This document shows positions 4,656-33,615 of a DNA stretch of 64,000 nt, piece after piece. The stretch comes from Bacilli bacterium (GTDB lineage: Bacteria; Bacillota_I; Bacilli_A; RF39; UBA660). Below the pieces are notes generated by a model. That model made no database searches, had not been told where the DNA came from, and worked only from the letters and a program-made list of their open reading frames with translations. The stretch lies in contig JAFZKH010000002.1 in assembly GCA_017553685.1 (NCBI GenBank), forward strand, positions 44,141 through 108,140. The letters are read 5' to 3'. Positions within the stretch are counted from its first letter, which is position 1; each line of letters starts with the position of its first letter. The translations under genes and the position numbers were made by a program.

Positions 4656-4730
4656 TGCCCCATAGCCAAGTGGTAAGGCTCCGGACTCTGACTCCGGCAC
4701 GCGTAAGTTCGAATCTTACTGGGGCAGCCA
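4656..4730 (+). tRNA. tRNA-Gln (anticodon CUG)
   Basis: Cloverleaf is complete: the acceptor stem TGCCCCA pairs with TGGGGCA, the D-arm is AGCCAAGTGGTAAGGC, the anticodon stem is CCGGA/TCCGG around loop CTCTGAC, the T-arm is GTAAG-TTCGAAT-CTTAC, and CCA is encoded. It closely matches bacterial tRNA-Gln. Confidence 0.85.
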
Positions 4731-4740
4731 TTTTTATGTG

Positions 4741-4769
4741 TTGATTTTAACATGCTAAAGTGTTATAAT
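4741..4769 (+). promoter_or_regulatory. sigma-A type promoter (TTGATT-N17-TGtTATAAT) upstream of the glycan locus
   Basis: -35 TTGATT, a 17-nt spacer, and an extended -10 TGTTATAAT. Confidence 0.5.
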
Positions 4770-4826
4770 GATTTTACGATATAAGAGAATAAAAAGTAAT
4801 AATTATATAGAAATAGGAGCTTTATT

Positions 4827-5495
4827 ATGGCAACAAATAAAAAAGAAAAAATAGATTATGTTGAAAAAAATAGAAAGAAATATTTTTATAGATTTGTTAA
4901 AAGATCATTTGATATTTTCTGTTCTATACTAGGAATGTTATTAGTACTACCAGTAGCATTAGTTACTAAGATTTGTTATTTATGTACTAAAGATACTAAA
5001 TCAATCTTTTATAAACAAAAAAGAATTGGTAAGTATGGAAAAATTATATATATTTATAAGTTTAGAAGTATGGTTTATAATGCTGATGAAGTATTAAAAG
5101 AATTATTAAAAGATCCAAAATATAAAAAAGAATGGGATAAGAATCAAAAGATTAATGATGATCCGAGAATTACTAAGATAGGTGGATTCCTTAGAAAGAC
5201 TTCTTTAGATGAATTACCACAATTCATTAATGTATTTATAGGAGATATGTCTTTAATAGGACCAAGACCTTTAGTAGAAGGAGAATTAGATGCTCATCAT
5301 GGAGATCATAAATTATATGAATCTGTTAGACCAGGTATATCTGGTTGGTGGGCTGCTAATGGAAGAAGTGCAACAGATTATGTTGAAAGACTAGAACTAG
5401 AAAACTATTATTGCAAAAATTGTAGTATCTGGTTAGATATTAAATGTATATTTAGAACAATAAAAGCAGTAATATTTAGAAGTGGAGCAAAATAG
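4827..5495 (+). CDS. Priming sugar-phosphate transferase (bacterial sugar transferase family, WbaP/CpsE C-terminal type)
   Basis: One TM helix, then KFRSM...DELPQF...GDMSLIGPRP, the PF02397 signature. Confidence 0.85.
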   Translation: MATNKKEKIDYVEKNRKKYFYRFVKRSFDIFCSILGMLLVLPVALVTKICYLCTKDTKSIFYKQKRIGKYGKIIYIYKFRSMVYNADEVLKELLKDPKYKKEWDKNQKINDDPRITKIGGFLRKTSLDELPQFINVFIGDMSLIGPRPLVEGELDAHHGDHKLYESVRPGISGWWAANGRSATDYVERLELENYYCKNCSIWLDIKCIFRTIKAVIFRSGAK

Positions 5496-5518
5496 ACTTA
5501 AATAGTCTATTTTTTTTT
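5493..5518 (+). terminator. Rho-independent terminator overlapping the stop codon
   Basis: TAGACTTAAATAGTCTA hairpin followed by T9. Confidence 0.5.
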
Positions 5519-5652
5519 ATATAAAAATATTGTGATATAAACAAATGTATGCTACGATTAAATTGTATTAATTATTCTAGCATGCGTTAATATGACAATT
5601 TGCGCGCGTACCGTTTATTTACTAAAGCTAGATAGTAAATTTGCATGACCGC

Positions 5653-5700
5653 GGGGAACACTTTCTATTAATAGATACGGGAGGTGTTTCCCGTTTTTTT
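5653..5700 (+). terminator. Intrinsic terminator/attenuator hairpin within a GC-rich leader
   Basis: GGGAACAC...GTGTTTCCC stem followed by TTTTTTTTGTTTTTT. Confidence 0.55.
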
Positions 5701-5778
5701 TGTTTTTTAGGAGGTGATTTTATACATAGGTTAGCAAATATAATTAATACAAATATTATTCATTTATAGGAGGTTTAT

Positions 5779-6717
5779 ATGGAAAATGAAATAATTATTT
5801 TTGAAAATCAAAATATTAAATTAGAAGTTAATATGAAGGATGAGACTGTGTGGTTATCTTTAGATCAAATGTCACAATTATTTGGAAGAGATAAGTCTGT
5901 TATTTCTAGGCATATTAAGAATGCATTAGACGAGGAACTTAATAAATCAGTTATTGCAAAATTTGCAACAACTGCAGGAGATGGTAAAACATATCAAGTT
6001 GAATATTATAACTTAGATATGATTATATCTGTTGGTTATAGGGTAAAATCTAAAGAAGGTATAGTATTTAGAAGATGGGCTACTAGTGTATTAAAAGACT
6101 ATATGCTTAAGGGATATGCTGCTAATGAACAAAGACTAAAGTATTTAGAGAAGACAGTTCAGTTAATTGATATAGCAGGAAGAATAGAAGAAGAGCTTCA
6201 TGGAACTGAGGCACAAGATATTATTAAAGTGATTAATAATTATTCTAATGCTTTAAATCTATTAGATGATTATGATCATAGATCATTATCTAAACCTAAA
6301 GGAACAGTATCAGATGATATGATTACATACGATAATTGTTTAAATGTAATAGGATTACTTAGATTTAATAATGATAGTGATATATTTGCATTAGAAAGAA
6401 ATAAGGGATTAAAGTCTATTATTGCTAATATTTATCAAACATTTGGTGGTAAAGATGTTTATCCGACAATTGAAGAAAAGGCTGCTAATTTCTTATATCT
6501 AATTATTAAGAATCATACATTTATAGATGGTAATAAAAGAATAGCTGCTACATTATTTATTTACTTTTTAGAGTATTATAATATTCTTTACAAGAATGAA
6601 AAAAGAGTATTAGATAATAATACTTTAGTAGCTTTAACTCTTTTAATAGCAGAGTCTAATCCTAAAGAAAAAAGTATATTAATTGATTTGGTAATGAACT
6701 TTTTAATAGACAAGTAA
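5779..6717 (+). CDS. RhuM-family N-terminal domain fused to a Fic/DOC (death-on-curing) domain
   Basis: The N-terminal half matches the RhuM virulence-protein family (VGYRVKSKEGIVFRRWATSVLKDY). The C-terminal half carries the Fic/Doc core (HTFIDGNKRIAATLFIYFL). Confidence 0.75.
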   Translation: MENEIIIFENQNIKLEVNMKDETVWLSLDQMSQLFGRDKSVISRHIKNALDEELNKSVIAKFATTAGDGKTYQVEYYNLDMIISVGYRVKSKEGIVFRRWATSVLKDYMLKGYAANEQRLKYLEKTVQLIDIAGRIEEELHGTEAQDIIKVINNYSNALNLLDDYDHRSLSKPKGTVSDDMITYDNCLNVIGLLRFNNDSDIFALERNKGLKSIIANIYQTFGGKDVYPTIEEKAANFLYLIIKNHTFIDGNKRIAATLFIYFLEYYNILYKNEKRVLDNNTLVALTLLIAESNPKEKSILIDLVMNFLIDK

Positions 6718-6746
6718 TTGTCTATTTTTCTTTTCTTTAGTATAAT
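6718..6746 (+). promoter_or_regulatory. Promoter TTGTCT-N17-TATAAT
   Basis: Consensus-like hexamers with 17-nt spacing upstream of galE. Confidence 0.45.
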
Positions 6747-6767
6747 TAAATTAGTATAGGAGGATAA

Positions 6768-7775
6768 ATGAAGAATATACTTGTAACTGGTGGAACTGGA
6801 TATATTGGTTCTCATACAGTAGTTGAATTATTAGAAAATGGAGATAATGTAATAATAGTAGATAATTTATCTAATAGTAAAATAGAGGTAATAGATGCTA
6901 TTAAGAAGATAACTGGTAAAGAAGTTAAATTTTATAATATTAATTATTTAGATAGAAAAGAATTAGAAAAAGTATTTGAGGAAAATGAAATAGATTCTGT
7001 TATTAATTTTGCAGGATATAAAGCAGTAGGAGAATCTACTAAGAAACCATTAGAATATTATGAAAATAATGTTTCTGGTGCAATAGTACTTTTAGAAACT
7101 ATGCAAAAGTATAATGTTAAAAAGTTTGTATTTAGTAGTAGTGCTACTATATATGGAGAACAATCTGTTCCAAAATATGTAGAAACTATGAATAGAGGTA
7201 TACCATCTAGTCCATATGGTATGACTAAAGTTATGATAGAACAAATCTTAGAAGATTTATATAAAGCAGATAATGAATGGAGTATATCTGTTCTTAGATA
7301 CTTTAATCCAGTAGGAGCTCATCCTAGTATGTTAATAGGAGAAGATCCAGAAGGAATACCAAATAATTTAATGCCATATATTCAAAGAGTAGCAGCAGGT
7401 AAATTACCAGAATTAACTATATTTGGTAATGATTATCCAACACCTGATGGTACTTGTTTAAGAGATTATTTACATGTAGTAGATTTAGCTAAAGGACATT
7501 TAAAAGCATTAGAAAATTTAAATAAAAAAGGATCTGGTATATATATTCATAATCTTGGAACAGGTAATCCAAAGAGTGTACTTGAAATGGTTAATACATT
7601 TAAAAGTGTTAATGGTATAGATGTACCATATAAGTTTGGCCCAAGAAGAGATGGAGATCTACCAGAATTCTATGCAGATCCATCTAAAGCAGAAAAAGAA
7701 CTAGGTTGGAAAGCAGAAAAGACTTTAGAAGATATGTGTAGAGATTCATGGAATTATCAAAAGAATAAAATGTAA
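6768..7775 (+). CDS. galE: UDP-glucose 4-epimerase
   Basis: GGTGYIGSH Rossmann motif, YxxxK, and YFNPVGAHPS...GEDP, typical of GalE. Confidence 0.9.
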   Translation: MKNILVTGGTGYIGSHTVVELLENGDNVIIVDNLSNSKIEVIDAIKKITGKEVKFYNINYLDRKELEKVFEENEIDSVINFAGYKAVGESTKKPLEYYENNVSGAIVLLETMQKYNVKKFVFSSSATIYGEQSVPKYVETMNRGIPSSPYGMTKVMIEQILEDLYKADNEWSISVLRYFNPVGAHPSMLIGEDPEGIPNNLMPYIQRVAAGKLPELTIFGNDYPTPDGTCLRDYLHVVDLAKGHLKALENLNKKGSGIYIHNLGTGNPKSVLEMVNTFKSVNGIDVPYKFGPRRDGDLPEFYADPSKAEKELGWKAEKTLEDMCRDSWNYQKNKM

Positions 7776-7803
7776 AAGATATGTCTTATGACATATCTTT
7801 TGT
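7776..7803 (+). terminator. Rho-independent terminator
   Basis: Perfect 10-bp stem AAGATATGTC/GACATATCTT with loop TTAT, followed by a T-rich run. Confidence 0.6.
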
Positions 7804-7855
7804 ATTTTACTTTTTATTATAAAAATACTATAATATTATAAAGAGGAATGAGTTA

Positions 7856-9919
7856 ATGAAAAAGAAATTTTCTGAAAATAAAAATAAAATTATTGATAGT
7901 ATTAAGAATTTTAGTTTTAAGAAATTATTACATCAGATATTACACTTTATTAAATATAATAGAGTTTTTTTATCGTATGTAATACTTTCTTTAATTAGTT
8001 GTAAATTACTAAGATTATTTACTATAGAAGATGGTATTAATATTAAAGCATTTTTATTTGATTTATCAATTATATTATTACTTGGTAGTTTAGGTTATTT
8101 CTTTAAACCTAAGAATCAATTTAAATATTGGTTACTATTATTAATACTATATACATTTATAAATACAGTAAATGGTATGTATTATTTATTCTTTACATCA
8201 TTTGCATCATTCTCATTATTAGAAACATTTGCACAAACATTTACTGTTAGTGATTCTGTAGTAGCTAAATTATCTTATAAGACATTTGTATATTTATTTA
8301 TTTTAATTATTTATATAGTTCATAGAGAAATACTTAGAAAGAAAAGATATTATTTCACTGTGGAAAAAGTAGAGAAAAGAAAGAAAATATTACCTGCTGT
8401 ATTAATAACAGGTGCTGCTATATTAGTTATTAGTGTTTGTATGCTTAATAAAACAGATTTATCTAGACTTAGAAAGCAATGGAACAGAGAATACATAGTT
8501 GAACGATATGGAGTACTTGTATATCAAGGAAATGATTTAGCACAAACTATTAAAACTAAATTAGATGCTACTTTTGGTAAAGATAAAGCAGCAGAAGAAT
8601 TTATTAATTATTATAATAACAATACTAATCCAAAGAGTAATAATGAATATACTAATAAACTTGAAGGTTATAATGTAATTATTATTCACTTAGAAAGTAT
8701 GATGCAGTTTTTAGTAGGTTTAGAAATAAATGGACAAGAAGTAACACCAAACTTAAATAAGTTAACAAGAGAATCAATGTATTTTGATAATTTCTATTCA
8801 CAAGTAAGTGTAGGTACTTCATCAGATGCAGAGTTTACTTTAAATACAAGTTTATTACCAGCTCAATCAGGTACAGTAGCAGTTTCTTACTATAATAGAA
8901 ACTATGTTTCTTTAGAAAAACTATTAAATGAAAAAGGATATTATACATTCTCTATGCATGGTAATAAAGCTAGTATGTGGAATAGAGCTAACTTACATGA
9001 TTCACTTGGTTATGAAAGATTCTATAGTCAAGATGATTATGAAATAGATGAAGTAATAGGACTTGGTTTATCTGATAAATCATTTTTTAGACAATCTGAA
9101 GTTAAACTAGGAGAAATCAAAGAAATGGTTGATTCATCAGATAAATATAATAACTATATGGGTACTATACTTATGCTTTCTAATCATACACCATTTGAAG
9201 ATCCATATTATCTTGAAGGAGAAGATACCTTTGATGTTAGATATCATACAGGACAATATGATGAAGAAGGTAATGAAATCATTTATGATTATTTATTAGA
9301 TGAAAATGTAAAAACTATTGGTAGATATATAAGAAGTGTTCACTATGCTGATGAAGCACTAGGAGAATTCATGGAATATGTTAATACCCATGATGAATTT
9401 AATAAGACAGTATTTGTTATGTATGGAGATCATGCAGCACAAATAGGTAAATCAGAGTTTGCAGCATATAATAACTTTGATCCAGAAACAGGAGAGTTCT
9501 TAGATAAAACTAGTGAAAACTATAATAACTATGATTATTATTCAAATGAAGTATTTAAGAAAGTTCCATTCTTAATATATACTAAAGATGGATCTATTAA
9601 ACCAAATACATATTCTTATCCTATGGGTATGATAGATGTATTCCCAACTATTGGAAATATGCTTGGTATTTATAATCAATATGCTTTAGGAAAAGATATC
9701 TTTGAAATAAAAGATGATAATACAGTAGTGTTCCCTAATGGAAACTTCTTAACAAAAGATGTATATTATTATGCAACATCAGATAATTATAAGATATTAG
9801 ATCCTGATGCACAATTAAGTTCTGATTATGTAGAAGAACATAAATTATACTCAGAAGGTATTATTAAAGAATCAAATGATTTAATACTTTATAACTTAAT
9901 AGAATATACAAAGGAATAA
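7856..9919 (+). CDS. LTA-synthase-family (LtaS-like) sulfatase / phosphoglycerol transferase, polytopic N-terminus plus extracellular catalytic domain
   Basis: Five N-terminal TM helices, then a sulfatase domain (NVIIIHLESM...TPNLNKL...FYSQVSVGTSSDAEF). Confidence 0.75.
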   Translation: MKKKFSENKNKIIDSIKNFSFKKLLHQILHFIKYNRVFLSYVILSLISCKLLRLFTIEDGINIKAFLFDLSIILLLGSLGYFFKPKNQFKYWLLLLILYTFINTVNGMYYLFFTSFASFSLLETFAQTFTVSDSVVAKLSYKTFVYLFILIIYIVHREILRKKRYYFTVEKVEKRKKILPAVLITGAAILVISVCMLNKTDLSRLRKQWNREYIVERYGVLVYQGNDLAQTIKTKLDATFGKDKAAEEFINYYNNNTNPKSNNEYTNKLEGYNVIIIHLESMMQFLVGLEINGQEVTPNLNKLTRESMYFDNFYSQVSVGTSSDAEFTLNTSLLPAQSGTVAVSYYNRNYVSLEKLLNEKGYYTFSMHGNKASMWNRANLHDSLGYERFYSQDDYEIDEVIGLGLSDKSFFRQSEVKLGEIKEMVDSSDKYNNYMGTILMLSNHTPFEDPYYLEGEDTFDVRYHTGQYDEEGNEIIYDYLLDENVKTIGRYIRSVHYADEALGEFMEYVNTHDEFNKTVFVMYGDHAAQIGKSEFAAYNNFDPETGEFLDKTSENYNNYDYYSNEVFKKVPFLIYTKDGSIKPNTYSYPMGMIDVFPTIGNMLGIYNQYALGKDIFEIKDDNTVVFPNGNFLTKDVYYYATSDNYKILDPDAQLSSDYVEEHKLYSEGIIKESNDLILYNLIEYTKE

Positions 9920-9941
9920 ATATAATTTATTCCTTTTTTTA
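9908..9941 (+). terminator. Rho-independent terminator
   Basis: AAGGAATAAAT-ATA-ATTTATTCCTT followed by T7. Confidence 0.6.
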
Positions 9942-9953
9942 TTCCCATATGTT

Positions 9954-9981
9954 TGACTTAAAAAGCCATATAATATATAAT
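9954..9981 (+). promoter_or_regulatory. Promoter TTGACT-N16-TATAAT
   Basis: Consensus-like hexamers, suggesting a new transcription unit begins here. Confidence 0.45.
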
Positions 9982-10018
9982 TATATATATACATAATATG
10001 TCAGGAGGATGGATTAAA

Positions 10019-10807
10019 ATGAAAAAAATTACAGTAATAATTGCTACTCATAAAGAGTATCAAATGCCAAAGGATAATTTGTATTTACCTGTTCAAGTAG
10101 GTGCTGAAGGAAAGAAAGATTTAGGTTACACAAGAGACAATACAGGAGATAATATATCTACAAAGAATCCTTTTTTTTGTGAACTAACTGGTTTATATTG
10201 GGCTTGGAAAAATTTAGATTATGATTATTTAGGACTTGCTCATTATAGAAGACATTTTGGTTTAAAGAAAAAGAAATATAAGAAAATAGAAGATACATTA
10301 GATCATGTATTAACTAGAAAAGAAGCAAAAGAATTATTAAAAGATTGTGATGTAATACTTCCAAAGAAAAGAAAGTATTATATTGAAAACTTATATCATC
10401 ATTATAAAAGTACTATGCATGTAGAAACTTTAGATGAAACAAGAAAGATTTTAGAAGAAAAATATCCAGAGTATTTACCTGAATTTGATAAACTTCATAA
10501 GAGAACTTCAATGCATGCATTTAATATGTTTATTATGAAGAAAGAAATATTAGATGGATATTGTACTTGGTTATTTGATAATTTATTTGAATTAGAGAAA
10601 AGAATAGATACTTCTAAGTATGATGCATTCCATGCTAGATTCTATGGAAGAATCTCAGAAAGACTTCTTGATGTATATTTAAATACAAATGGTATAAAAT
10701 ATAAAGAAATACCATTTATAGAAATAGAACATATAAATTGGATAAAGAAAGGATTTAGTTTCTTATTAGCTAAATTTTTTGGTAAGAAATATGGGAAAAG
10801 CTTCTAA
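10019..10807 (+). CDS. DUF4422-family glycosyltransferase
   Basis: IATHKEY...ELTGLYWAWKN...GLAHYRR motifs. The ATG at 10019 is preferred because the AGGAGG SD lies inside the listed 9998 start. Confidence 0.7.
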   Translation: MKKITVIIATHKEYQMPKDNLYLPVQVGAEGKKDLGYTRDNTGDNISTKNPFFCELTGLYWAWKNLDYDYLGLAHYRRHFGLKKKKYKKIEDTLDHVLTRKEAKELLKDCDVILPKKRKYYIENLYHHYKSTMHVETLDETRKILEEKYPEYLPEFDKLHKRTSMHAFNMFIMKKEILDGYCTWLFDNLFELEKRIDTSKYDAFHARFYGRISERLLDVYLNTNGIKYKEIPFIEIEHINWIKKGFSFLLAKFFGKKYGKSF

Positions 10808-11792: not shown

Positions 11793-11796
11793 GCAT

Positions 11797-12984: not shown

Positions 12985-13004
12985 TTAAATGGAGGTGAGA
13001 GAAA

Positions 13005-15405: not shown

Positions 15406-15419
15406 TGCAGGGAGGTTTT

Positions 15420-15824: not shown

Positions 15825-15836
15825 AGGTATTAATAA

Positions 15837-16850: not shown

Positions 16851-16870
16851 TAAAAGGAATATATCATTGT

Positions 16871-16899: not shown

Positions 16900-16958
16900 T
16901 ATTATTGCGACTATTAATAATTATAAAAGTATAAATATAAATTTTAGAGGTGAATTTA

Positions 16959-21584: not shown

Positions 21585-21602
21585 ATCTATAAAGGAGTAG
21601 AA

Positions 21603-23057: not shown

Positions 23058-23068
23058 GAGGTAGTTTT

Positions 23069-24163: not shown

Positions 24164-24169
24164 TAATAA

Positions 24170-24197
24170 AAAGCCCTTAAGCCGGGCTTTTTTTTGT
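24170..24197 (+). terminator. Rho-independent terminator
   Basis: AGCCC-TTAAGCC-GGGCT followed by T8. Confidence 0.6.
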
Positions 24198-24251
24198 TTG
24201 CTATCTTTACATAGATTTGAATATATTATAAAATTTATATAGGTGAATCGT

Positions 24252-25331: not shown

Positions 25332-25420
25332 TGGCTTTTTATTTTACACTTCTATACTTTGATAGGTTGAATGATATATCATTTTTTGATATAATCAAAT
25401 ATACAAAGGATAGGTGTTAT

Positions 25421-26491: not shown

Positions 26492-28003
26492 ATGAAAAAG
26501 AAAGAGAATAAAAAACCAACCAAGGATAAGAATAAGAGAAGTAAAAAGGTTGTTAGTAGAATTATAAATATATTATCTATTATAGTATTAGGAGTATTCC
26601 TATACTATATGTATAAATCTGATTTATTTCCTATTAAATATTTTAGAATAGCTGCTATTACATTAATAGCATTAGAAATAATATATACATTACTTTGTAT
26701 TAATAAGAAAAGATCAGGTGTAATACTTAAAATATTTAATGTATTTGCAATACTGTTTATATTAGTAGAAGCCGCAGCTTTCTATTATGTATATAGAACA
26801 ATTACATTCCTAGATACAAATTTAGGTAAGAATTATGAATTTGATGAATATTATGTAATTGCTAATGTATCATCTGAAATAAAAGATATAAAAGAAGCTG
26901 ATGGTGGAGAAATATTCTATTATGTAGATACAGAACACTATAATGAATTAAAAGCTACACTTAAGAAGAAAACAACTGCTAAAATAGCTAAAACTGATAC
27001 ATTAGATGAATCATTAATGAAACTTAGTTATCCTGAAAATTTAGTTATATTAAATGCAGGTACATATCAATCTATAACTACTAATGATGAAACATATGCA
27101 TCATATTTAAAAATAGTAGATACTATTAAATTTAGAATTAAAAAAGAAAAAGCAAAGACTCCTGATATTGATATTACTAATACACCATTTACTATATTCC
27201 TTAGTGGTATAGATACTAGAGGTGGTTCTTTAGTTAAAAGAAGTTTATCAGATGTTAACATGGTAATAGTAGTTAATCCAAATACTAGAACTATATTACT
27301 TGTTAGTATTCCAAGAGATTCATATGTACAATTACATGGAACTACTGGTAGAAAAGATAAGTTAACACATGCTGGAAGTTTAGGTGGTGTAGAACTATCT
27401 AAAGCTACAGTAGAAGATATGTTAGATATTAAGACAGATTACTATGTTAGAGCAAACTTCCAAGCAGTTATGAACTTAGTTGATGCTGTTGGTGGAGTAA
27501 CAGTTTATGAAGATGCAACAGATAGAAGATTCTCATGTTGGACAGATAGAAGATGTTGGATTGAACCAGGAGAAAATAATCTTAATGGACAATGTGCTTT
27601 AGCATTTGCTAGAGAAAGATATGAATACTGGGATGGAGATATGCAAAGAAATAGAAACCAACAAAAAGTTTTAAAAGCTATTGTTGATAAAATGACTTCA
27701 TCTACAACATTAATTGTTAATTATAGTAGTATTTTAAAATCATTAGATGGAACATTTGAAACATCTATGTCAACAGAAGAAATAACTTCACTTGTTAAAT
27801 TCCAAATAAATGATATGAGAGGTTGGACATTTAAATCTCAAAACATAACTGGTGGAACTGGTAGAGAACAAACTTACTCTGGAGGATCTACACCATTATC
27901 AGTTGTATATCCTAGTCAAAAGACTATTAACGAAGCAAAAGATGCTATAGCAAAAGTTCTTGCTGGTGAGTCTCTTGATGAAGAAGAAACTACTGAAGAA
28001 TAA
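26492..28003 (+). CDS. LCP (LytR-CpsA-Psr) family glycopolymer-peptidoglycan ligase
   Basis: TM anchor plus the LCP core (RSLSDVNMVIVVNPNTRTILLVSIPRDSYV...GGV). Confidence 0.85.
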   Translation: MKKKENKKPTKDKNKRSKKVVSRIINILSIIVLGVFLYYMYKSDLFPIKYFRIAAITLIALEIIYTLLCINKKRSGVILKIFNVFAILFILVEAAAFYYVYRTITFLDTNLGKNYEFDEYYVIANVSSEIKDIKEADGGEIFYYVDTEHYNELKATLKKKTTAKIAKTDTLDESLMKLSYPENLVILNAGTYQSITTNDETYASYLKIVDTIKFRIKKEKAKTPDIDITNTPFTIFLSGIDTRGGSLVKRSLSDVNMVIVVNPNTRTILLVSIPRDSYVQLHGTTGRKDKLTHAGSLGGVELSKATVEDMLDIKTDYYVRANFQAVMNLVDAVGGVTVYEDATDRRFSCWTDRRCWIEPGENNLNGQCALAFARERYEYWDGDMQRNRNQQKVLKAIVDKMTSSTTLIVNYSSILKSLDGTFETSMSTEEITSLVKFQINDMRGWTFKSQNITGGTGREQTYSGGSTPLSVVYPSQKTINEAKDAIAKVLAGESLDEEETTEE

Positions 28004-28077
28004 TAAATAAAAAGTTTTACAATTTGTAAAACTTTTTTTATTTGTTTCATGATATAATGAAAGTAGGAGGTACTCTT

Positions 28078-29235
28078 ATGAAAAAGAAGAAAATATTAGA
28101 TATTATTGTAATGGTATTTTTAATATTAAATCCATTAATAGATTTATTTGGATGTTTTCAAGATAAGTATCTAAATATTCCTGTTTCAATTAATTATATT
28201 ATCAGAGGATTATTTTTCCTAGGAATATTTATCTACTTATTTACTAAGAAAGATAATAGAAAGATGTTAATAGTATTTTTAGTATATTTCTTACTAGCTA
28301 TATCATCGTATTTTATGAGAGGTTTAAATCTATATGAAGAGTTAGTAAATATATTAAAGATATTCTATTTACCTATAATGATGATATTCTTTGCTAAATA
28401 TAGAAATGAATATATAAATGATAGATTTATATTAGATACTTATTTCTTATATATAGTTACATTTATTATCATGTATATATTTAAAGTTAATAAAGATTAT
28501 TTAAATACTATTGGTGTTATATTAGTAGGTCTTCTTCCTATAACACTTAACTATGTTATAGAAAGTAAGAACTATATATTAAAAGTAGTATTTGGTTTAG
28601 CATTAGCTCTTAGTATTTATTTAATTAGTACTAAATTAATAGTACTTGGAGTATTCTTAGTAACACTATGTACTTTATTTGGTAAATATAAATATGAATT
28701 TATTTATAATGGTTTTAAAAAGAAATTAAAAGTATTATTAATATTCTTAGCATTTATTGGAGTATTTGCATTACTAGTTAGATTTTCACCATTCTATACT
28801 AATGTTAAAACTCAAATAATAGGACTAAATATTCATAGTTTTAAAGATGTATATAAACTAAGAACAATTGATAGATTTGTATTCTCTGGTGGTATTTCTA
28901 GAGTAGATAATGTTATGGGACCACTTTTAAAACATGGTTATAATAATATTATGTATGGTATTGGTAAAACAGGTATAGTTAAATATACAGGTATAGATAT
29001 ATTTGATATATTTGCTACTACTGGATTATTTGGTGGAGTAATATTTATTATTATGTTTAGTTTCATTCATAGAAGAACTGAACTTAAGAAAGTATATTAT
29101 TTCTCATATTTAGTATTTGTTATTACATCTATATTTATTGGATCAGTATTAATATATCCATCAATATCGTTAATAATGTCTACATTATATTTAGTTTCTT
29201 ATAATTCAAATGATTTTATTAAAAATAAGAAATAA
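28078..29235 (+). CDS. Polytopic membrane protein, possibly O-antigen-ligase-like
   Basis: About 10 TM helices. The AGGAGG SD precedes the ATG at 28078. Only weak Wzy_C-like features. Confidence 0.4.
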   Translation: MKKKKILDIIVMVFLILNPLIDLFGCFQDKYLNIPVSINYIIRGLFFLGIFIYLFTKKDNRKMLIVFLVYFLLAISSYFMRGLNLYEELVNILKIFYLPIMMIFFAKYRNEYINDRFILDTYFLYIVTFIIMYIFKVNKDYLNTIGVILVGLLPITLNYVIESKNYILKVVFGLALALSIYLISTKLIVLGVFLVTLCTLFGKYKYEFIYNGFKKKLKVLLIFLAFIGVFALLVRFSPFYTNVKTQIIGLNIHSFKDVYKLRTIDRFVFSGGISRVDNVMGPLLKHGYNNIMYGIGKTGIVKYTGIDIFDIFATTGLFGGVIFIIMFSFIHRRTELKKVYYFSYLVFVITSIFIGSVLIYPSISLIMSTLYLVSYNSNDFIKNKK

Positions 29236-29290
29236 AACACTTTATTTTATTAAATATATTTGTTAAAATGTTATATACAAGAAAAGAATC

Positions 29291-29325
29291 TAAACATGAC
29301 TTTTTGTCATGTTTAGTTTTGTCTT
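29291..29325 (+). terminator. Perfect 11-bp inverted repeat (CTAAACATGAC-TTTTT-GTCATGTTTAG) plus T-rich tail
   Basis: Seen directly in the sequence. It could act as a terminator or as an operator. Confidence 0.45.
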
Positions 29326-29347
29326 ACATAAAAATCAGGAGGGTATT

Positions 29348-30025
29348 ATGAGCGAGAGAATTTATGTATATGTAACAACTGAAAAAGATTATAAGAAAGT
29401 ATTTAATGAAGGTATATGTTTTTTAAATCAAGATTTTAGTATGGATAAGGACTTTGAATTAGTAAGTGAAGATGATTTACCATTATTCTTGCAAAGTATA
29501 AAATCAAGTGAAACAGCATATGTTATTAAAGTGCCTGAAGAATATATGCAAGTAATAGTAAAAGATAATTTAAGAATCTTTCCATATCCAATACTTTTTG
29601 AAAGACAAATGTTTGATCAAAAAAGAAGAATAGTAGATTTCTATCCAGTTTTAGTTCCTGCATTAATTTCATTTATGTATAGTGAAAAGATAGGTATTAT
29701 TTGTAATCCAAATTATAGTATTAATTTTAATCCTAATGGATTAAAATATACTAAAGGACAATTAGATAGTGTTAAATCTAAAGCACCAAGATATCTTAAA
29801 GATTATGAAAAGAGAAATAATGAAGATTCAGTTACTTTATATTGTATTGATAAAACAAATCAAACTTGGGGTATGTTAAAAAAAGTATATAATGTTGATG
29901 ATTCTATTAATCCTTTTCCTTTAACAGAATTACCTTCTGTAACATTTGAACCTTCAAAGGAAAAGAAAAAGGGATTAAATAATAATAAAAAAGGTAAAAA
30001 AAAGGAACAATTTTATGAAGAATAA
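29348..30025 (+). CDS. Hypothetical cytoplasmic protein with Lys-rich C-terminus
   Basis: ORF with a CAGGAGGG SD. No recognisable motifs. Confidence 0.5.
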   Translation: MSERIYVYVTTEKDYKKVFNEGICFLNQDFSMDKDFELVSEDDLPLFLQSIKSSETAYVIKVPEEYMQVIVKDNLRIFPYPILFERQMFDQKRRIVDFYPVLVPALISFMYSEKIGIICNPNYSINFNPNGLKYTKGQLDSVKSKAPRYLKDYEKRNNEDSVTLYCIDKTNQTWGMLKKVYNVDDSINPFPLTELPSVTFEPSKEKKKGLNNNKKGKKKEQFYEE

Positions 30026-30225
30026 AATTGTTTTTTTAGTGGAATTATTCTTTTTATAGTTAATAAAATACTAAAGGGGGTAATAATATAAAAAGAATAA
30101 TTAAATATATAATAATTGCTTTAATAATAGGTATTATAGTAGGATTTACTATTATTAATAATAATAAAAAAGAAGATGTAGTAGAAATAAAAGAAGAACC
30201 TATAATAATAGAGAATATTGAAAAA

Positions 30226-31170
30226 ATGGTTTATTTAATAGATAAGAAGAACTCTAATGTAGATGAATTATTAAAAGATAATATAACTATTAAATATGAA
30301 ACTGTTTATGTATGTGAAGAAGAGTCTACTATTGAAGAAGAAATTGTTGAAGAAGATATAGTAGAGGAAGAAATAAAAGAGGAACCAGTTATAGAAGAAC
30401 CTAAATGTAAAGGTATAGTAGATAATAAATATTATGATGATAATTATAAATTAAGAGAAGAATTTACTGTTAAAGATGGTAAAGTATATTATGGTAATAA
30501 TAAAGGACTTCATTTAGTAGATGGCATAAGATATTATTTTGATTTTAATGATGGGCATTTAGTTAGATCATCTATTAAGAGTGTAATAGACATATCTTCT
30601 TGGCAAGGTGATATTGATTTTGATAAGTTAAAAGAAAGTAATTTAGTAGATGCAGTAATAGTTAGAGTAGGCTATGGAACAACAAATTCTAAATGTGGTT
30701 TAGATAATAAGTTTGAAAGAAATATAAAAGAATTAAATAGAGTAGGTATTCCATATGGAATATATATCTATGGATATGCTAATAATGAATATAGTGCTAA
30801 CATAGAAGCTAACTTTGTATATGATATGATAAATAAGTATAATGTTAATCTTAGTTATCCAGTATTCTATGATGCAGAATTAAGAACATATAATGGCATT
30901 TCTTACACTAAAAGTATATATACTAAGGTAATTAGTGCATTTACTTCAAATCTTGAATCTAAGGGCATTAAAACGGGTGTATATGGCAATTTATATATGC
31001 TTACTAAAGGATCACTTAATGATCCCTTTATTAGAAGTAAAACTATATGGGTAGCTCAGTATTATAATAAGTGTCAATATGATGGAGATTATATTGGATG
31101 GCAATATTCCTCAAATGGTAATATACCTGGGATATCTGGAAGAGTAGATATAAATATTTTTAATTATTAA
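30226..31170 (+). CDS. GH25 family muramidase (lysozyme) with N-terminal acidic repeat region; the real start is probably upstream at about 30088
   Basis: DISSWQGDIDF...VIVRVGYG...WVAQY...WQYSSNG...GRVDINIF is the GH25 signature. The same frame stays open back to 30067 and encodes a TM anchor. Confidence 0.7.
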   Translation: MVYLIDKKNSNVDELLKDNITIKYETVYVCEEESTIEEEIVEEDIVEEEIKEEPVIEEPKCKGIVDNKYYDDNYKLREEFTVKDGKVYYGNNKGLHLVDGIRYYFDFNDGHLVRSSIKSVIDISSWQGDIDFDKLKESNLVDAVIVRVGYGTTNSKCGLDNKFERNIKELNRVGIPYGIYIYGYANNEYSANIEANFVYDMINKYNVNLSYPVFYDAELRTYNGISYTKSIYTKVISAFTSNLESKGIKTGVYGNLYMLTKGSLNDPFIRSKTIWVAQYYNKCQYDGDYIGWQYSSNGNIPGISGRVDINIFNY

Positions 31171-31248
31171 TGTAAAATTTTAAAAAACTTAACCCATTTA
31201 CTTAGATATATGATATTATAGTATATGTATGATAAAGGTGGTTGTAAG

Positions 31249-31956
31249 ATGAAAAAATTAGATAAAATTATTTTATTTTCTGTATTCTTTTTATTAGTAG
31301 CTATTATAGTATTAATGGTTGTTATGTTAGTTCAAAAAGGTAGAATTTATTTAGGTAGAAATATCGTATATGAAAATGTAGTAGAAGAGAAAAAACTTAT
31401 TAGTGAAAATATAGTATTTTTAGGAGACTCTATTACTGAATTCTATGACTTAGATAAATATTATGATGATTATTATCATGTACAAAGTGGTCATAGTGGA
31501 GATAAAACATATCAAATACTAGATAATATGTATGAAAGAGTATATAGATATAATCCATCAAAAGTATTTATTATGCTTGGTATTAATAACTTAGTATATG
31601 ATGGAGCATCAGCAGAAGAAGTAACTAATGATATTAAAGAAATATGTGAAAAAATAAAAGATAGAAATAAATATACAGAAATTTATATAGAATCTATTTC
31701 TCCATATTCTAATGTATGGAAAAATGAACATGATAATAATGCTAGATCTGCTGAAGAAGTTAATCCTAAAGTAGTAGAAGCTAATAAAATACTTAAAAAG
31801 TATGCTAAAGATAATAATTATACTTATATAGATATATATGATGAACTTGCTAATGAAGAAGGTATATTTGATTCTAAATATACTGATGATGGTCTACATC
31901 CTAATGATGAAGGATATAAACATATAACAGAAAAATTAACTAAATATATGAAATAA
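31249..31956 (+). CDS. SGNH/GDSL hydrolase (probable carbohydrate esterase)
   Basis: Signal anchor, a GDSITE block and the DDGLHPN catalytic DxxH motif. Confidence 0.8.
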   Translation: MKKLDKIILFSVFFLLVAIIVLMVVMLVQKGRIYLGRNIVYENVVEEKKLISENIVFLGDSITEFYDLDKYYDDYYHVQSGHSGDKTYQILDNMYERVYRYNPSKVFIMLGINNLVYDGASAEEVTNDIKEICEKIKDRNKYTEIYIESISPYSNVWKNEHDNNARSAEEVNPKVVEANKILKKYAKDNNYTYIDIYDELANEEGIFDSKYTDDGLHPNDEGYKHITEKLTKYMK

Positions 31957-31983
31957 GAGTTTTAATAAAACTCTTTTTTTGTT
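31957..31983 (+). terminator. Rho-independent terminator
   Basis: AGAGTTTTA-ATA-AAACTCT followed by T7. Confidence 0.6.
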
Positions 31984-32015
31984 ATAATTAATACATAAAG
32001 TAGTGGAGGATTAGT

Positions 32016-32507
32016 ATGCAAATATATGATTTTATAGATATAAAGCATCAAGTAATCGCTGGTATTAAAAATCCATATTTAAATATAGAGGGAATATGTA
32101 CTAAAAAAGATGTAGATTTTGTTGTAATAGAAGATGGGGAAGAAATAGAATTTGAAAGACCAAAATCTAAATATGAAAATGGATTTTATGTAAAAGCTAA
32201 ACTTAGAATGGATTCTAAATATATTAAAGTATATGTATTAGATGGTTCTAAAAGGTTATTAATATTCTCAGGTAAAATGAGTGTATTTAATAGAATGGAA
32301 CATAAAGTAGAATTACTTGTTACAAGTATTTATATCTTCTTAAAAGTATTTTTTCCTACTTTTGGTGAAGGTATTAAATATTTATGGAAAAAACATAGAT
32401 TATTAACTCCATTTAATCTATGGGGTAAATATATTAAAAAGTTTAATAAAATATTAAAAGAAAAATATAATATAGCTTTAAAAGAACATGAAGAAATATA
32501 TGATTAA
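32016..32507 (+). CDS. Hypothetical protein
   Basis: ORF with its own promoter-like TGtTATAAT. No recognisable motifs. Confidence 0.45.
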   Translation: MQIYDFIDIKHQVIAGIKNPYLNIEGICTKKDVDFVVIEDGEEIEFERPKSKYENGFYVKAKLRMDSKYIKVYVLDGSKRLLIFSGKMSVFNRMEHKVELLVTSIYIFLKVFFPTFGEGIKYLWKKHRLLTPFNLWGKYIKKFNKILKEKYNIALKEHEEIYD

Positions 32508-32517
32508 TGAGGTTAAT

Positions 32518-33615
32518 ATGAAAAAAAGATTATCTAATTTTGAACTTATGAGAATTATATCAATGTTCTTTATAGTATTATGGCATTTTCTATTATTTGG
32601 AAAAATGGAAGAAGGGACACTTGGTTTAACTCATAATGTAATTATTTTATTAAAAGCAATTACATTAGTACATGTTAATTCATTTGTTTTATTAACAGGT
32701 TATTTTAATTATGATAAGAAATTTAAGTTATCTAAAGTAATTAAAACAAATAACTCTATGTGGTTTTATAGTGTAGTTTGTTTACTTATTTTAATGTTTG
32801 GATTCTCAATTACATTTTCTAAGTTTTATACATTTAGAATGATGTTACCAATACCTAAATTTGATGAGTATTGGTTCTTAGTAGTATATATGCTTTTATA
32901 TTTAATAAGTCCATTATTAAATATGATTATTAGAGAATCAGATAAAACTAAACATAAAATGATTATTATAGGTTTATTAATAATTACTTTATTAACTTAT
33001 ATAACAGGTAATGAATTTTATAATATTAATGGTGGATATTCATTATTTATGTTTATTGTTTTATATTTTATAGGATCTTATTTACATAAGTATCCAATTG
33101 AAACTAAAAGAAGTAAATTAATTATATTTTCAGTTATAGGATTTATTTTATTAGCAGTTTTAAATGCTTTATTATATAGAGCAGGATTAATCTTACAAGA
33201 ATCATCAAAAGAATCAGTTAGATTCTATGCAGATGCAATAGTAAATGGTTTTACTGCTTATTCTAATCCATTTATATTACTTGGATCTATTATATATTTT
33301 ATATTCTTTAGTGCTTTAAAATTTAGTAGTAAAGTAGTTAATTTCTTTGGTAAATATGTACTTGGTACTTATTTAATAACACAAAATACTTTATTATATA
33401 CTAGAATTTATAAACCACTTGGATTTGCTATTGATTCATATAACTATAAACATATTTTAATAGCTATTGGATTATCTATTAGCTTTGTTATTATATGTTC
33501 TTTAATAGAAGCCCTAAGAGTATTTATATTTAAAGTAATATATGATTTAAAAGTATCAGGTAAAATTAGAAATAAGATTACTAAATTATTTAAAAAAGTT
33601 AATATTAACTGGTAA
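32518..33615 (+). CDS. Membrane O-acyltransferase (acyltransferase 3 family), third copy
   Basis: FELMRIISMFFIVLWHF plus polytopic topology. Confidence 0.75.
   Translation: MKKRLSNFELMRIISMFFIVLWHFLLFGKMEEGTLGLTHNVIILLKAITLVHVNSFVLLTGYFNYDKKFKLSKVIKTNNSMWFYSVVCLLILMFGFSITFSKFYTFRMMLPIPKFDEYWFLVVYMLLYLISPLLNMIIRESDKTKHKMIIIGLLIITLLTYITGNEFYNINGGYSLFMFIVLYFIGSYLHKYPIETKRSKLIIFSVIGFILLAVLNALLYRAGLILQESSKESVRFYADAIVNGFTAYSNPFILLGSIIYFIFFSALKFSSKVVNFFGKYVLGTYLITQNTLLYTRIYKPLGFAIDSYNYKHILIAIGLSISFVIICSLIEALRVFIFKVIYDLKVSGKIRNKITKLFKKVNINW

Follow-up and report, generated by a model that had tools for sequence, protein, structure and literature searches.

Why a glycopolymer locus with a single priming transferase should hold two complete sets of flippase and polymerase genes is the question raised by a gene cluster of approximately 29 kb, which starts after tRNA-Gln in the 64,000-nucleotide stretch of Bacilli DNA analysed here (the window; loci and contigs compared with it carry L numbers). 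Profile searches with Pfam and NCBIfam showed that the gene content is real and intact: every ORF is full length relative to its homologues, and the polytopic proteins have about 8–10 predicted helices. The locus is a composite of two complete assembly cassettes joined together, each of which occurs alone in other genomes. The reading favored here, at a probability of approximately 0.6, is that the cell makes two different repeat-unit polymers that would share the primer, the precursors (the UDP-Galf supply) and the LCP attachment machinery. The cluster is probably the cell-wall glycopolymer locus resident in an uncultured, low-GC lineage of gut or rumen Bacilli, rather than in a Clostridium, and it is a well-documented case of cassette shuffling, though in a locus of an ordinary kind.

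The features named in a preliminary description of the window (a single priming transferase; two Wzy and two Wzx proteins; TagD, TagF-like, LtaS-like, Glf and WbbI-like proteins; three Acyl_transf_3 proteins; and DUF3048, LCP, ligase-like, GH25 and SGNH proteins) were all found, at coordinates that were exact or off by a few bases. GalE, the DUF4422/GT111 protein, GT2, two GT4s, two ORFs of no family and the RhuM/Fic (PDC-S23) gene had not been mentioned.

Conserved head and tail

All genes of the locus lie on the forward strand, as does tRNA-Gln(CTG) at its upstream boundary (4656–4730; ARAGORN, and Rfam tRNA at 64 bits). In eight related loci from related species, the head (GalE, LtaS-like and DUF4422) and the tail are kept and the centre differs in each, which bears out the earlier proposal of a mosaic locus. 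The first gene encodes a small (222 aa) WbaP-type polyprenyl-phosphate hexose-1-phosphate transferase with one predicted membrane helix (4827–5495; Bac_transf, 205 bits), the only Bac_transf gene and the sole priming enzyme of the locus. It matches the C-terminal domain of the TIGR03022 WbaP model at 276 bits, under the cut-off of 403, and its alleles in relatives form two classes (91% and 75% versus 48–49%). It is followed by a RhuM/Fic gene (5779–6717; Pfam RhuM and Fic), a full-length PADLOC match (398 bits) to the phage-defence candidate PDC-S23, which is an inserted passenger and no glycan enzyme. This gene is present in L072 at 82%; L006, L007 and L073 lack it and have just one copy of the hairpin sequence that brackets it here as a duplicate (5501–5518 and 6716–6733). 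A terminator-like hairpin (5677–5694, forward strand) lies on its 5′ side, and the fold of 5496–5778 has a z-score of −2.4.

GalE, a UDP-glucose 4-epimerase supplying UDP-Gal (6768–7775; TIGR01179, 436 bits, cut-off 262), belongs to the conserved head and is 87–93% identical in relatives. The next gene encodes a membrane protein of the LtaS family (7856–9919; Sulfatase, 102 bits; precomputed Pfam LtaS_N). Its extracellular domain has a sulfatase fold; the protein scores 262 bits against the LtaS equivalog model, under the cut-off of 970, and its PDB matches are the LtaS and LtaP ectodomains (E 1e-38 to 1e-34). LtaS-type enzymes use phosphatidylglycerol as substrate, outside the cell (PMC9574508). 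The gene is 84–92% identical in close relatives, and some 75 loci of greater distance have it on its own; in distant relatives it adjoins rlmN-stp-prkC-rsgA-rpe, coming after rpe in L131 and L144. It had been grouped with TagD and the TagF-like enzyme as a teichoic-acid-type module; those two lie in the extra cassette described below, whereas the LtaS-like gene is a conserved core gene, and its membership of the CDP-glycerol branch is not supported. The last head gene encodes a candidate galactofuranosyltransferase of the DUF4422 (GT111-fold) family (9998–10807; DUF4422, 303 bits), 81–87% identical in close relatives; in WbbM, the DUF4422 domain is the GT111 Galf-transferase (PMC12269835).

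Ahead of the conserved tail lies a variable allele, the acyltransferase AT3b (24243–25331; Acyl_transf_3, 56 bits), which is 45% identical in L164 and has no homology at the DNA level with the AT3 gene that takes its place in L179. The genes that follow are largely conserved and encode an N-terminally anchored DUF3048 protein (25328–26482; N- and C-terminal domains; 75–83% identical in L164 and L167), a predicted CpsA-type LCP glycopolymer-to-peptidoglycan transferase (26492–28003; LytR_cpsA_psr, 140 bits) and a WaaL-fold, O-antigen-ligase-like membrane protein (O-antigen_lig-like; 28042–29235). The LCP protein has >2,400 homologues and matches the Cps2A model from end to end, with 280 bits against a cut-off of 650. 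A terminator-like palindromic hairpin (29290–29316, forward strand) precedes a variable 238-aa ORF (unk238; 29309–30025) that is missing from L179, in which window positions 29212–30031 have no counterpart. A conserved GH25 muramidase (30226–31170; Glyco_hydro_25, 81 bits; 77–86% identical in relatives) is followed by an N-terminally anchored SGNH/GDSL esterase (31225–31956; Lipase_GDSL_2, 86.5 bits), to which sialate O-acetylesterase and lysophospholipase L1 are the nearest proteins of solved structure. A conserved 163-aa ORF (32016–32507; 61–79% identical in relatives) overlaps the start of the final gene, the acyltransferase AT3c (32488–33615; Acyl_transf_3, 82 bits; 47–68% identical in relatives); like unk238, this ORF has no Pfam, NCBIfam or PADLOC match. 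A terminator-like hairpin with a 15-pair stem (33617–33653, forward strand) forms the downstream boundary and is shared with a convergent HIGH_NTase1 (tmcAL-like) gene (33625–34746, reverse strand).

Two distinct cassettes in the variable centre

Set 1 begins with a cytoplasmic glycosyltransferase, GT2 (10779–11792; Glycos_transf_2, 152 bits), which is 63–69% identical to its homologues in L170 and L161. A GtrB-like identity was rejected for this protein, since no membrane helices were predicted in it. The polymerase predicted for the set, Wzy1, is a polytopic protein of 10 helices (11797–12984; Wzy_C, 39.2 bits, gathering score 31.7) from a rare family with 41 matches, whose profile reaches the oligosaccharyltransferase PDB 9RMK (E 1e-5) and, weakly, WaaL; among Wzy_C-family proteins, sequence cannot separate polymerase from ligase. 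The set continues with a short-form CDP-glycerol glycerophosphotransferase (TagF/TarF-like; 13005–14189; Glyphos_transf, 261 bits), which scores 190 bits against the TarF model, under its cut-off of 550, and is 58% identical to the L170 homologue at the equivalent position; the flippase Wzx1 (14167–15405; Polysacc_synt, 136 bits; 79% identical to the L170 homologue); TagD, a glycerol-3-phosphate cytidylyltransferase for CDP-glycerol supply (15405–15824; TIGR01518, 184 bits, cut-off 165); and the acyltransferase AT3a (15837–16850; Acyl_transf_3, 81 bits, 8 helices).

Set 2 comprises two glycosyltransferases, GT4a (16950–18062; Glycos_transf_1, 105 bits; 74–75% identical in L072 and L073) and GT4b (18078–19166; Glycos_transf_1, 99.5 bits; only 56–66% identical in the same loci), and a WbbI/Gtf3-like candidate galactofuranosyltransferase (19175–20242; precomputed Pfam Gtf3_N and Gtf3_C) that matches the PRK09814 family (NCBIfam PRK09814.2-3) at 290 bits, below the equivalog cut-off of 420. 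Wzy2 is predicted to be an oligosaccharide repeat-unit polymerase (20244–21584; NCBIfam TIGR04370, 165.6 bits, cut-off 40; below cut-offs in Pfam), and one of its homologues, P0186, is a natural fusion with a WbbI/Gtf3-type domain. The flippase Wzx2 (21603–23057; Polysacc_synt, 109 bits, with MurJ and MatE matches; 86% identical in L072) and the UDP-galactopyranose mutase Glf (23069–24163; TIGR00031, 423 bits, cut-off 304; 96–98% identical in L072, L074 and L164) complete the set.

Family profiles support both Wzy genes (starting at 11797 and 20244) and both Wzx genes (14167 and 21603), and the members of each pair are distinct genes, not duplicates: Wzx1 shares 27% identity with Wzx2, and no similarity was detectable between Wzy1 and Wzy2. 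Rather than being conserved throughout with one pair pseudogenized, the locus has a variable centre and two intact pairs.

Comparison with the closest relative of the window locus, L072/L179, gives clean breakpoints. In blastn, window positions 7–10809 and 16973–24156 align with L072, and L179 gives identical breakpoints; a 36-bp spacer in L072/L179 takes the place of a 6.16 kb extra segment in the window (10810–16972) that contains set 1 and the promoter-like site at 16871. Set 2 stands alone, head to tail, in L072/L179, and set 1 stands alone in L170 in identical gene order (PGT-DUF4422-GT2-Wzy-TagF-Wzx-TagD); stand-alone sets elsewhere carry one Wzx/Wzy pair each. L161 and L172 also have the DUF4422-GT2-Wzy1 trio; there, as in L170, DUF4422 is co-linear with GT2-Wzy1-type genes, and a Lachnospira Galf locus (L162/L163) holds all three with a PGT gene between DUF4422 and GT2. 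The 6.16 kb difference may be a gain in the window or a loss in L072, since DUF4422-GT2 adjacency is common among relatives.

Each cassette is framed by promoter-like and terminator-like sites. The gap ahead of DUF4422 contains the site TTGACT-17-TATAAT (9953–9981), and the same motif at the 3′ end of the extra segment (16871–16899) precedes set 2, which ends at a terminator-like hairpin with a T-run after its stem of 9 pairs, including 4 G-C pairs (24168–24192; all forward strand). Both sites, described earlier as internal promoters, are intergenic and are the top matches of the region (11/12), but promoter-like sites as a class were not enriched over shuffled sequences (107 found versus 139 expected) and are therefore consensus matches only.

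The tandem sets could instead record a recent recombination of two alternative serotype cassettes, with one set used and the other silent or dispensable and as yet undecayed, a transitional state that we consider possible yet clearly less probable than two polymers. Relatives each show just one visible Wzx/Wzy set, and cassette exchange is clearly active at the locus, as seen in breakpoints inside GT2 (only the first ~300 bp of which is common to L006, L007 and L074), the divergent AT3b and the unk238 indel. In addition, wherever same-species contigs were compared, their proteins matched at 100%, as would be expected of a recent clone; the contigs therefore show no trace of selection after the merger, and one of the sets may be silent. 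Against this, none of the 13 genes in the two sets is disrupted or truncated, each cassette comes with a strong promoter-like site, the codon usage of both is fully host-adapted, and the arrangement is seen in several samples.

Residence at the tRNA-Gln site and soundness of the assembly

The first locus gene lies 97 bp beyond tRNA-Gln, and a promoter-like site with an extended −10 element (TTGATT-17-TATAAT with a TG extension; 4741–4769, forward strand; consensus match only, 10/12) occupies this gap. Taken with the passenger defence-candidate gene, this position invites the view, put forward in the preliminary description as a classic accessory-island junction, that a tRNA-targeted mobile island delivered accessory polysaccharide genes. 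Such an origin is very improbable: no integrase or recombinase occurs among the ORFs, the tRNA-Gln 3′ end is repeated nowhere in the window, and GC content and codon usage show no shift from block to block or relative to the flanks. The proposed comparison of 4.8–16.9 kb with 16.9–24.2 kb was likewise negative (GC3 0.137 versus 0.117; codon-usage correlation 0.98). Every close relative has the locus at the same site with an orthologous, conserved head and tail, the rsmD-tRNA-Gln junction recurs in L005, L006 and L007, and core genes (LtaS-like and LCP) lie inside.

Least probable of all is an assembly chimera joining the alternative cassettes of two strains. The source is a metagenome-assembled genome, in which variable loci are prone to misassembly, and one scaffold (L153) ends inside AT3b; however, each of the two junctions, AT3a-GT4a and DUF4422-GT2, is crossed at 100% identity by contigs assembled independently from different samples (L152, L153, L157, L158, L159 and L175), and this independent assembly argues that the composite arrangement is genuine. 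All 13 contigs bearing the exact LemA of the window have the same arrangement, and the flanks of the variant loci are only 85–90% identical to the window in DNA, indicating that these belong to other species; the strain variability suggested earlier is thus not supported.

Predicted polymers

As both sets are intact and each stands alone elsewhere, two polymers sharing one primer, offered previously as an alternative, is a better reading than a single heteropolysaccharide. In the proposed organization, a head (priming transferase, GalE, LtaS-family core enzyme and GT111 Galf-transferase) and a tail (DUF3048, CpsA-type LCP, WaaL-fold protein, GH25, SGNH esterase and AT3) would enclose a centre shuffled by recombination, here with two Wzx/Wzy cassettes, each self-contained, one after the other. 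The analysis establishes which genes are present, that they are intact, where the breakpoints lie and that each cassette occurs alone; which sugars are used, the order of the branches, the expression of both sets and the attachment are predictions from sequence. According to family assignments, GalE and Glf would provide UDP-Gal and UDP-Galf, and TagD CDP-glycerol; the single WbaP-type transferase would load hexose-1-phosphate onto undecaprenyl phosphate, and Galf would probably be added to both branches by the GT111 enzyme, this shared use being conjectural. In branch 1, GT2 would add a sugar and the TagF-like enzyme glycerol phosphate, with flipping by Wzx1, polymerization by Wzy1 and acylation by AT3a; in branch 2, two GT4 sugars and a WbbI-type Galf would be added, with flipping by Wzx2 and polymerization by Wzy2. 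The LCP enzyme would then move finished chains onto peptidoglycan. A search of the locus for a regulator of chain length (Wzz, CpsC or CpsD) gave none, which counts against this scheme. In A. tumefaciens, UppY and UppW each serve their own polymer within overlapping pathways, and the authors of work on EPA reasoned that one Wzx/Wzy pair corresponds to one exported chain.

A single composite polymer, with its backbone made by one cassette and a polymeric side chain or cap by the other, the two being joined outside the membrane by the WaaL-fold protein or LCP, resembles proposals for PSP-on-rhamnan in lactococci and EPA decorations in enterococci; here it appears unlikely. Both cassettes would start from one Und-PP primer, with no obvious asymmetry of acceptor and donor, and the WaaL-fold gene is equally present in one-set relatives (L164, L167 and L179) and is therefore not specific to the two-cassette state.

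Gene content and boundaries of the locus

The 27 co-directional ORFs between tRNA-Gln(CTG) (4656–4730), which was also found by an Rfam scan, and a convergent tmcAL-like gene on the minus strand (33625–34746) constitute a Gram-positive Wzx/Wzy-dependent, LCP-attached wall glycopolymer locus, which is of a well-known kind but in an uncommon state, with two cassettes in tandem. The window has a GC content of ~25%, a strongly positive GC skew and nearly all of its genes on the plus strand. Annotation with Pfam and NCBIfam identified, at the head of the locus, the sole copy of a WbaP-type priming transferase (222 aa; Bac_transf, 205 bits, with a match to the WbaP-type C-terminal domain), followed by a RhuM/Fic protein, GalE (above the equivalog cut-off), an LtaS-like protein of 687 aa and a DUF4422 protein (303 bits, positions 2–219 of 220). 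Set 1 encodes a GT2 enzyme without membrane helices, Wzy1 (Wzy_C above the gathering score), a TarF-like CDP-glycerol glycerophosphotransferase of 394 aa (Glyphos_transf, 261 bits; TagF-like hereafter), Wzx1 (Polysacc_synt, 136 bits), TagD (TIGR01518, 184 bits against an equivalog cut-off of 165) and the acyltransferase AT3a. Set 2 encodes two GT4 enzymes (the second being GT4b), a WbbI/Gtf3-like transferase, Wzy2, which scores below the Pfam thresholds and was assigned by TIGR04370 (165.6 bits against 40), Wzx2 (Polysacc_synt, 109 bits) and Glf (above the equivalog cut-off). The remaining genes encode, in order, AT3b, a DUF3048 protein, a CpsA-type LCP protein (identical to NCBI MBR4830307.1), an O-antigen-ligase-like protein, a 238-aa ORF without family assignment (unk238), a GH25 protein, an SGNH esterase, a 163-aa ORF likewise without family (unk163) and AT3c. 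The gene inventory of the preliminary description was thus correct for every gene that it listed; GalE, DUF4422, the GT2 and GT4 enzymes and the RhuM/Fic gene had been left out.

The three best promoter-like sites in intergenic gaps lie at 4741, 9953 and 16871, and terminator-like hairpins occur at 5677, 7766, 24168, 29290 and 33617; together these signals plausibly split the locus into transcription units. The promoter-like sites are consensus matches only, since the class is not enriched over shuffled sequences (107 observed versus 139 expected). The tRNA was the sole match in the Rfam scan, so the GC-rich hairpins at 5600–5700 match no known RNA family. Relatives of RsmD, which is encoded adjacent to the locus, were found in metagenome-assembled genomes of uncultured Bacilli from sheep gut or rumen, human gut and other hosts, variously labeled Bacilli, Erysipelotrichaceae, Tenericutes or Candidatus Onthousia, and two of these genomes are closed or near-closed (1.2–1.5 Mb). 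The locus is not clostridial.

Two Wzx/Wzy sets with one priming transferase

The locus encodes one priming phosphoglycosyltransferase, two MOP-family Wzx proteins and Wzy, the components of a Wzx/Wzy pathway, while no Pfam match to a chain-length regulator of the Wzz or CpsC/D type was obtained among the ORFs of at least 80 aa between 4827 and 33615, two of which carry no assignment. Both sets proved to be real, with no pseudogene in either pair, and the Wzx, Wzy/ligase-like and AT3 proteins are all full-length and polytopic. Wzx1 and Wzx2 are 27% identical, and pairwise similarity was undetectable among the three Wzy/ligase-like proteins and among the three AT3 proteins. A profile-profile comparison of the Wzy1, Wzy2 and ligase-like families gave no relationship (probability <1%) from shallow alignments, with which the method is uninformative, and structure prediction was therefore used for these proteins. 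Wzy2 has a SEDS-like fold, and some of its 158 homologues are named O-antigen or repeat-unit polymerases in lactobacilli and enterococci. For the Wzy1 family, the profile found an oligosaccharyltransferase of known structure (9RMK; E 1e-5), with a weak match to WaaL as well. Wzy1 and Wzy2 are both predicted to be polytopic Wzy repeat-unit polymerases. The possibility that GT2 acts as a GtrB-type Und-P-sugar synthase, and hence as a second primer, was ruled out by its lack of membrane helices.

Each polymerase has habitual transferase partners of its own. The Wzy2 homologue P0186 is a natural fusion with a WbbI/Gtf3-type transferase. DUF4422, GT2 and Wzy1 occur as a trio again in two related loci (L161 and L172), and a compact Lachnospira locus carries these three genes along with its own Wzx, Glf and priming transferase, the last of which lies between DUF4422 and GT2. 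DUF4422 and GT2 are commonly adjacent in the relatives. These partnerships argue, on sequence grounds, that the two sets would build two different repeat units. One of the sets may instead be silent after recent recombination, or each may contribute one part of a common polymer, the two parts being linked extracellularly.

Conserved ends and a variable center in related loci

The glycan locus follows rsmD and tRNA-Gln in all close relatives whose contigs reach the site. Its head is well conserved in these relatives (GalE 87–93%, LtaS-like 84–92% and DUF4422 81–87% identity), and its tail is retained in order and sequence in the related loci L164, L167 and L179, where it is followed by tmcAL on the minus strand and rlmN; identities are 75–83% for DUF3048, 63–76% for LCP, 53–81% for the ligase-like protein, 77–86% for GH25, 65–84% for SGNH and 61–79% for unk163. 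The center is different in each of eight related loci: L007, for example, carries a fusion of GT4 with Wzy, L006 has an additional sulfatase, one ORF in L073 appears to fuse Wzy with Wzx, and L167–L169 encode IspD and a reductase where the window has Glf-AT3. Fixed flanks around a variable center are a familiar architecture of serotype loci.

The nearest relative is L072, and L179, which is 99.97% identical to it, extends the comparison further. Window positions 7–10809 and 16973–24156 align to L072/L179 at 81–86%, whereas the 6.16 kb between them (10810–16972), carrying GT2-Wzy1-TagF-Wzx1-TagD-AT3a and the promoter-like site at 16871, correspond to a 36-bp spacer, reflecting either a gain in the window or a loss in the relative. 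L179 covers the whole locus from head to tail and has only one Wzx/Wzy pair. Conversely, set 1 stands alone in L170, as PGT-DUF4422-GT2-Wzy-TagF-like-Wzx-TagD-like in the same order and at 39–79% identity. Mosaicism extends to a finer scale: the GT2 gene has just its first ~300 bp in common with L006, L007 and L074; GT4b and the WbbI-like transferase are only 56–69% identical to their counterparts in L072/L073, against 91–95% for the flanks there; AT3b is a replaced allele, and unk238 an indel. A composite produced by chimeric assembly is largely excluded, because independent contigs from several samples span the junctions.

The start of the locus directly after a tRNA gene had been taken to mark an accessory-island junction and to suggest a strain-variable polymer. 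A mobile element targeting the tRNA is largely excluded: no integrase or recombinase domain was found among the ORFs, and the 24-nt tRNA 3′ end occurs once in the 64-kb window with up to three mismatches allowed. A comparison of composition and codon usage had been proposed as a check, and no contrast between blocks was seen; GC is 0.23–0.26 and GC3 0.10–0.14 in all of them, the codon usage of sets 1 and 2 correlates at 0.98, and the glycan blocks correlate with the flanks at 0.97–0.99, the short gene for RhuM/Fic at 0.93. Nor did comparison of the tRNA-Gln flank reveal an empty site, L006, L007, L072 and L073 all being occupied and the L005 contig stopping just past tRNA-Gln. Variability between strains was not borne out, in that all 11–13 contigs with exact RsmD, Glf, TagF-like or LemA have the same arrangement. 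The variant loci belong to other species, since their flanking DNA is 85–90% identical to the window; variation is shown between closely related species but not within this one.

Several features of individual relatives were also recorded. Glf (23069–24163) is 96–98% identical in L072, L074 and L164, compared with 88% for the housekeeping protein RlmN, 63% for LCP and 60–86% for the neighboring Wzx2, which suggests that the glf segment was recently exchanged between species or is under unusually strong constraint. In L073, a single 948-aa ORF (14908–17754), which may represent either a genuine fusion of polymerase and flippase or an error of sequencing, spans the Wzy2-like and Wzx2-like regions; two more ORFs, of 655 and 252 aa, come after it. 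The fusion in L007 (11507–13999; 830 aa), which sits where the variable center lies, joins an N-terminal GT4 to a C-terminal Wzy_C (75 bits). In L179, the Wzy2 orthologue (5849–7189) is split into 48 + 374 aa and the LCP orthologue (11988–13525) into 157 + 248 aa, which may be due to assembly indels or to real frameshifts. In a related species (L167, 586–1644; L168, 338–2152; L169, 322–2136), an epimerase/reductase-type gene lies directly upstream of DUF3048, at the place of Glf-AT3b in the window. It is preceded by an IspD-type cytidylyltransferase in L168 and L169, and by no more than a truncated ORF on the L167 contig, which points to a version of the locus of the ribitol-phosphate type. 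L153 (11513–12993), a scaffold from a different sample, matches the window at 100% identity as far as 24580, inside AT3b, and then passes into a RecR/NAPRTase region that is unrelated and lies on the opposite strand; it either was wrongly scaffolded or represents a rearranged variant in which AT3b is truncated. In two species, L006 (10712–11620) and L007 (4852–5652), an ORF of 302 and 266 aa, respectively, to which no annotation could be given, lies between tRNA-Gln and the priming transferase, where the window has a 97-bp gap and lacks the ORF.

Proposed pathway and comparison with known systems

The LtaS-like protein consists of an N-terminal membrane domain of 4–5 helices, recognized as LtaS_N in precomputed Pfam data, and an extracellular sulfatase-fold domain whose closest structures in the PDB are the ectodomains of LtaS and LtaP (2W8D, 4UOO and 2W5Q). 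The GacH/LtaS family, which moves GroP from phosphatidylglycerol outside the cell (PMC9574508), has the same fold and domain layout; the window protein differs in scoring below the LtaS equivalog cut-off (262 against 970 bits) and in its motif, which at the nucleophile position (residues 320–327; gene 7856–9919) reads GTSSDAEF instead of the GKTSDAEF of LtaS. In this motif, Ser is aligned with the catalytic Thr, a Thr lies one residue before it, and the sequence is invariant in three aligned orthologues. The LtaS-like protein occurs by itself in ~75 more distant loci, and in L131 and L144 its gene directly follows rlmN-stp-prkC-rsgA-rpe. It had been assigned to the CDP-glycerol branch; it is best read instead as a core gene of the LTA-synthase or GroP-transferase type around which the locus lies, TagD and the TagF-like enzyme belonging to the extra cassette. 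In the window (34854–41867), rpe is followed by a 672-aa ORF and a giant protein gene, ~30 kb downstream of the LtaS-like gene in the glycan locus, so the rpe neighborhood has been rearranged relative to L131/L144. The 672-aa ORF was rejected as a second LtaS.

DUF4422 has the fold of the GT111 galactofuranosyltransferases, as in the N-terminal domain of WbbM (PMC12269835), and here it is full-length and shares the locus with Glf, which would supply UDP-Galf. This brings the Galf-transferase candidates in the locus to two, and both polymers probably contain Galf, in keeping with the presence of DUF4422 even in those relatives that carry set 2 alone. The pathway that we infer, including the sharing of primer and attachment, would proceed as follows. 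GalE and Glf would make UDP-Gal and UDP-Galf, and TagD CDP-glycerol; the WbaP-type transferase would prime Und-P, and the GT111 enzyme would add Galf. One branch (GT2, GroP transfer by the TagF-like enzyme, Wzx1, Wzy1 and AT3a) would lead to a first polymer and the other (GT4a, GT4b, WbbI-like Galf transfer, Wzx2 and Wzy2) to a second, and the CpsA-type LCP protein would transfer both to peptidoglycan. Conserved roles in wall assembly would fall to GH25, SGNH, AT3b, AT3c, DUF3048, for which a literature search found no functional account, and the WaaL-fold protein. SGNH resembles carbohydrate O-acetylesterases most closely, and the idea that it forms a split OatA-type peptidoglycan O-acetyltransferase with AT3c was unsupported.

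The conserved ligase-like protein has the WaaL fold of a WaaL-type O-antigen ligase, while its family profile retrieved no solved relative by sequence, and the GT4 fusions are compatible with ligase and polymerase activity alike. We regard it as improbable that this protein, encoded beside LCP, is a true Gram-positive “O-antigen ligase” joining Wzy-made glycans to a second acceptor in the present genome-reduced lineage of uncultured Bacilli, with the two-cassette strain displaying two different ligated glycans from one primer. The acceptor would then be, for instance, LtaS-made lipoteichoic acid or glycolipid, or the other of the two polymers, and a monoderm would follow a lipopolysaccharide-like surface logic.

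Capsule loci of the Streptococcus pneumoniae type have conserved flanks around central serotype-specific glycosyltransferases, Wzy, Wzx and precursor genes such as glf or CDP-glycerol genes. The window shares with them a CpsA-type LCP protein that matches over its full length; it differs in having two Wzx/Wzy sets and the LCP gene at the tail rather than the head, and CpsB, CpsC and CpsD (phosphatase, Wzz-like protein and tyrosine kinase) were not found among its ORFs. Because a Wzz/CpsC/D regulator is absent, the locus resembles the decoration region of Enterococcus faecalis epa and the lactococcal PSP part of cwps more than streptococcal cps. The epa region likewise has a Bac_transf initiator, GT2 and GT4 enzymes, Wzx, a Wzy/O-antigen-ligase-like polymerase, GH25 and teichoic-acid-type alditol-phosphate chemistry fed by a cytidylyltransferase, varies between isolates, adjoins conserved genes and yields a product attached by LCP enzymes (PMC7188991). 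However, EPA decorations are carried on an ABC-transporter-made rhamnan, genes for which were not seen in the window locus, use ribitol phosphate and LicD rather than glycerol phosphate and a TagF-like enzyme, and depend on one Wzx/Wzy pair with LCP outside the locus, as opposed to two pairs with LCP inside. The PSP locus, a phage receptor determinant, shares a strain-variable glycosyltransferase cassette with a Wzx-type flippase and polymerization proteins, Galf from Glf in the repeat unit, and extracellular transfer by a dedicated membrane GT-C (PMC10821137, PMC9574508). PSP is primed as GlcNAc-P-C55 by the GacI/J-like WpsA/WpsB, unlike the window, which has a WbaP-type phosphoglycosyltransferase and a GT2 lacking membrane helices, no rhamnan partner, and two cassettes instead of one. 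The classical wall teichoic acid pathway has TagD (CDP-glycerol) and a CDP-glycerol glycerophosphotransferase in common with the window, but its TagO-type primer, TagA and TagGH are not among the ORFs of the locus, whose export genes are Wzx-type. A precedent for two Wzy enzymes, each serving one of two distinct polysaccharides in overlapping, partly shared pathways, is the Agrobacterium tumefaciens UPP (10.1101/2021.04.22.440995), although UPP is an adhesin at the pole of a Gram-negative cell, its genes are dispersed, LCP attachment is absent and the proteins are unrelated.

The preliminary observation is confirmed and its interpretation partly supported, with island junction, LtaS role and strain-level variability corrected. 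The locus contains no new kind of machinery and is of value as a well-annotated example of surface-glycan diversity in uncultured gut and rumen Bacilli, in which the head and tail stay fixed while complete Wzx/Wzy cassettes between them are exchanged or stacked; tandem cassettes with one primer also offer a natural test of how Wzx/Wzy specificity separates two pathways on a shared lipid carrier.

Two neighboring features complete the description. The RhuM/Fic gene lies in a ~1.2-kb insertion (5496–6767) in the spacer between the priming transferase gene and galE, flanked by a duplicated terminator-like hairpin (5501–5518 and 6716–6733), and is present in L072 at 82% and absent from L006, L007 and L073. 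Its product is a candidate defense protein by its full-length match to PADLOC PDC-S23 (398 bits, residues 1–309), so that a defense candidate resides in a locus probably encoding a phage receptor. Approximately 8 kb downstream of the locus, and preceded by the 672-aa ORF (39849–41867), which is without annotation, a giant ORF of 4,247 aa (41958–54701) contains Listeria-Bacteroides repeats (Flg_new) together with a CarboxypepD_reg domain; its product is presumably a surface protein.
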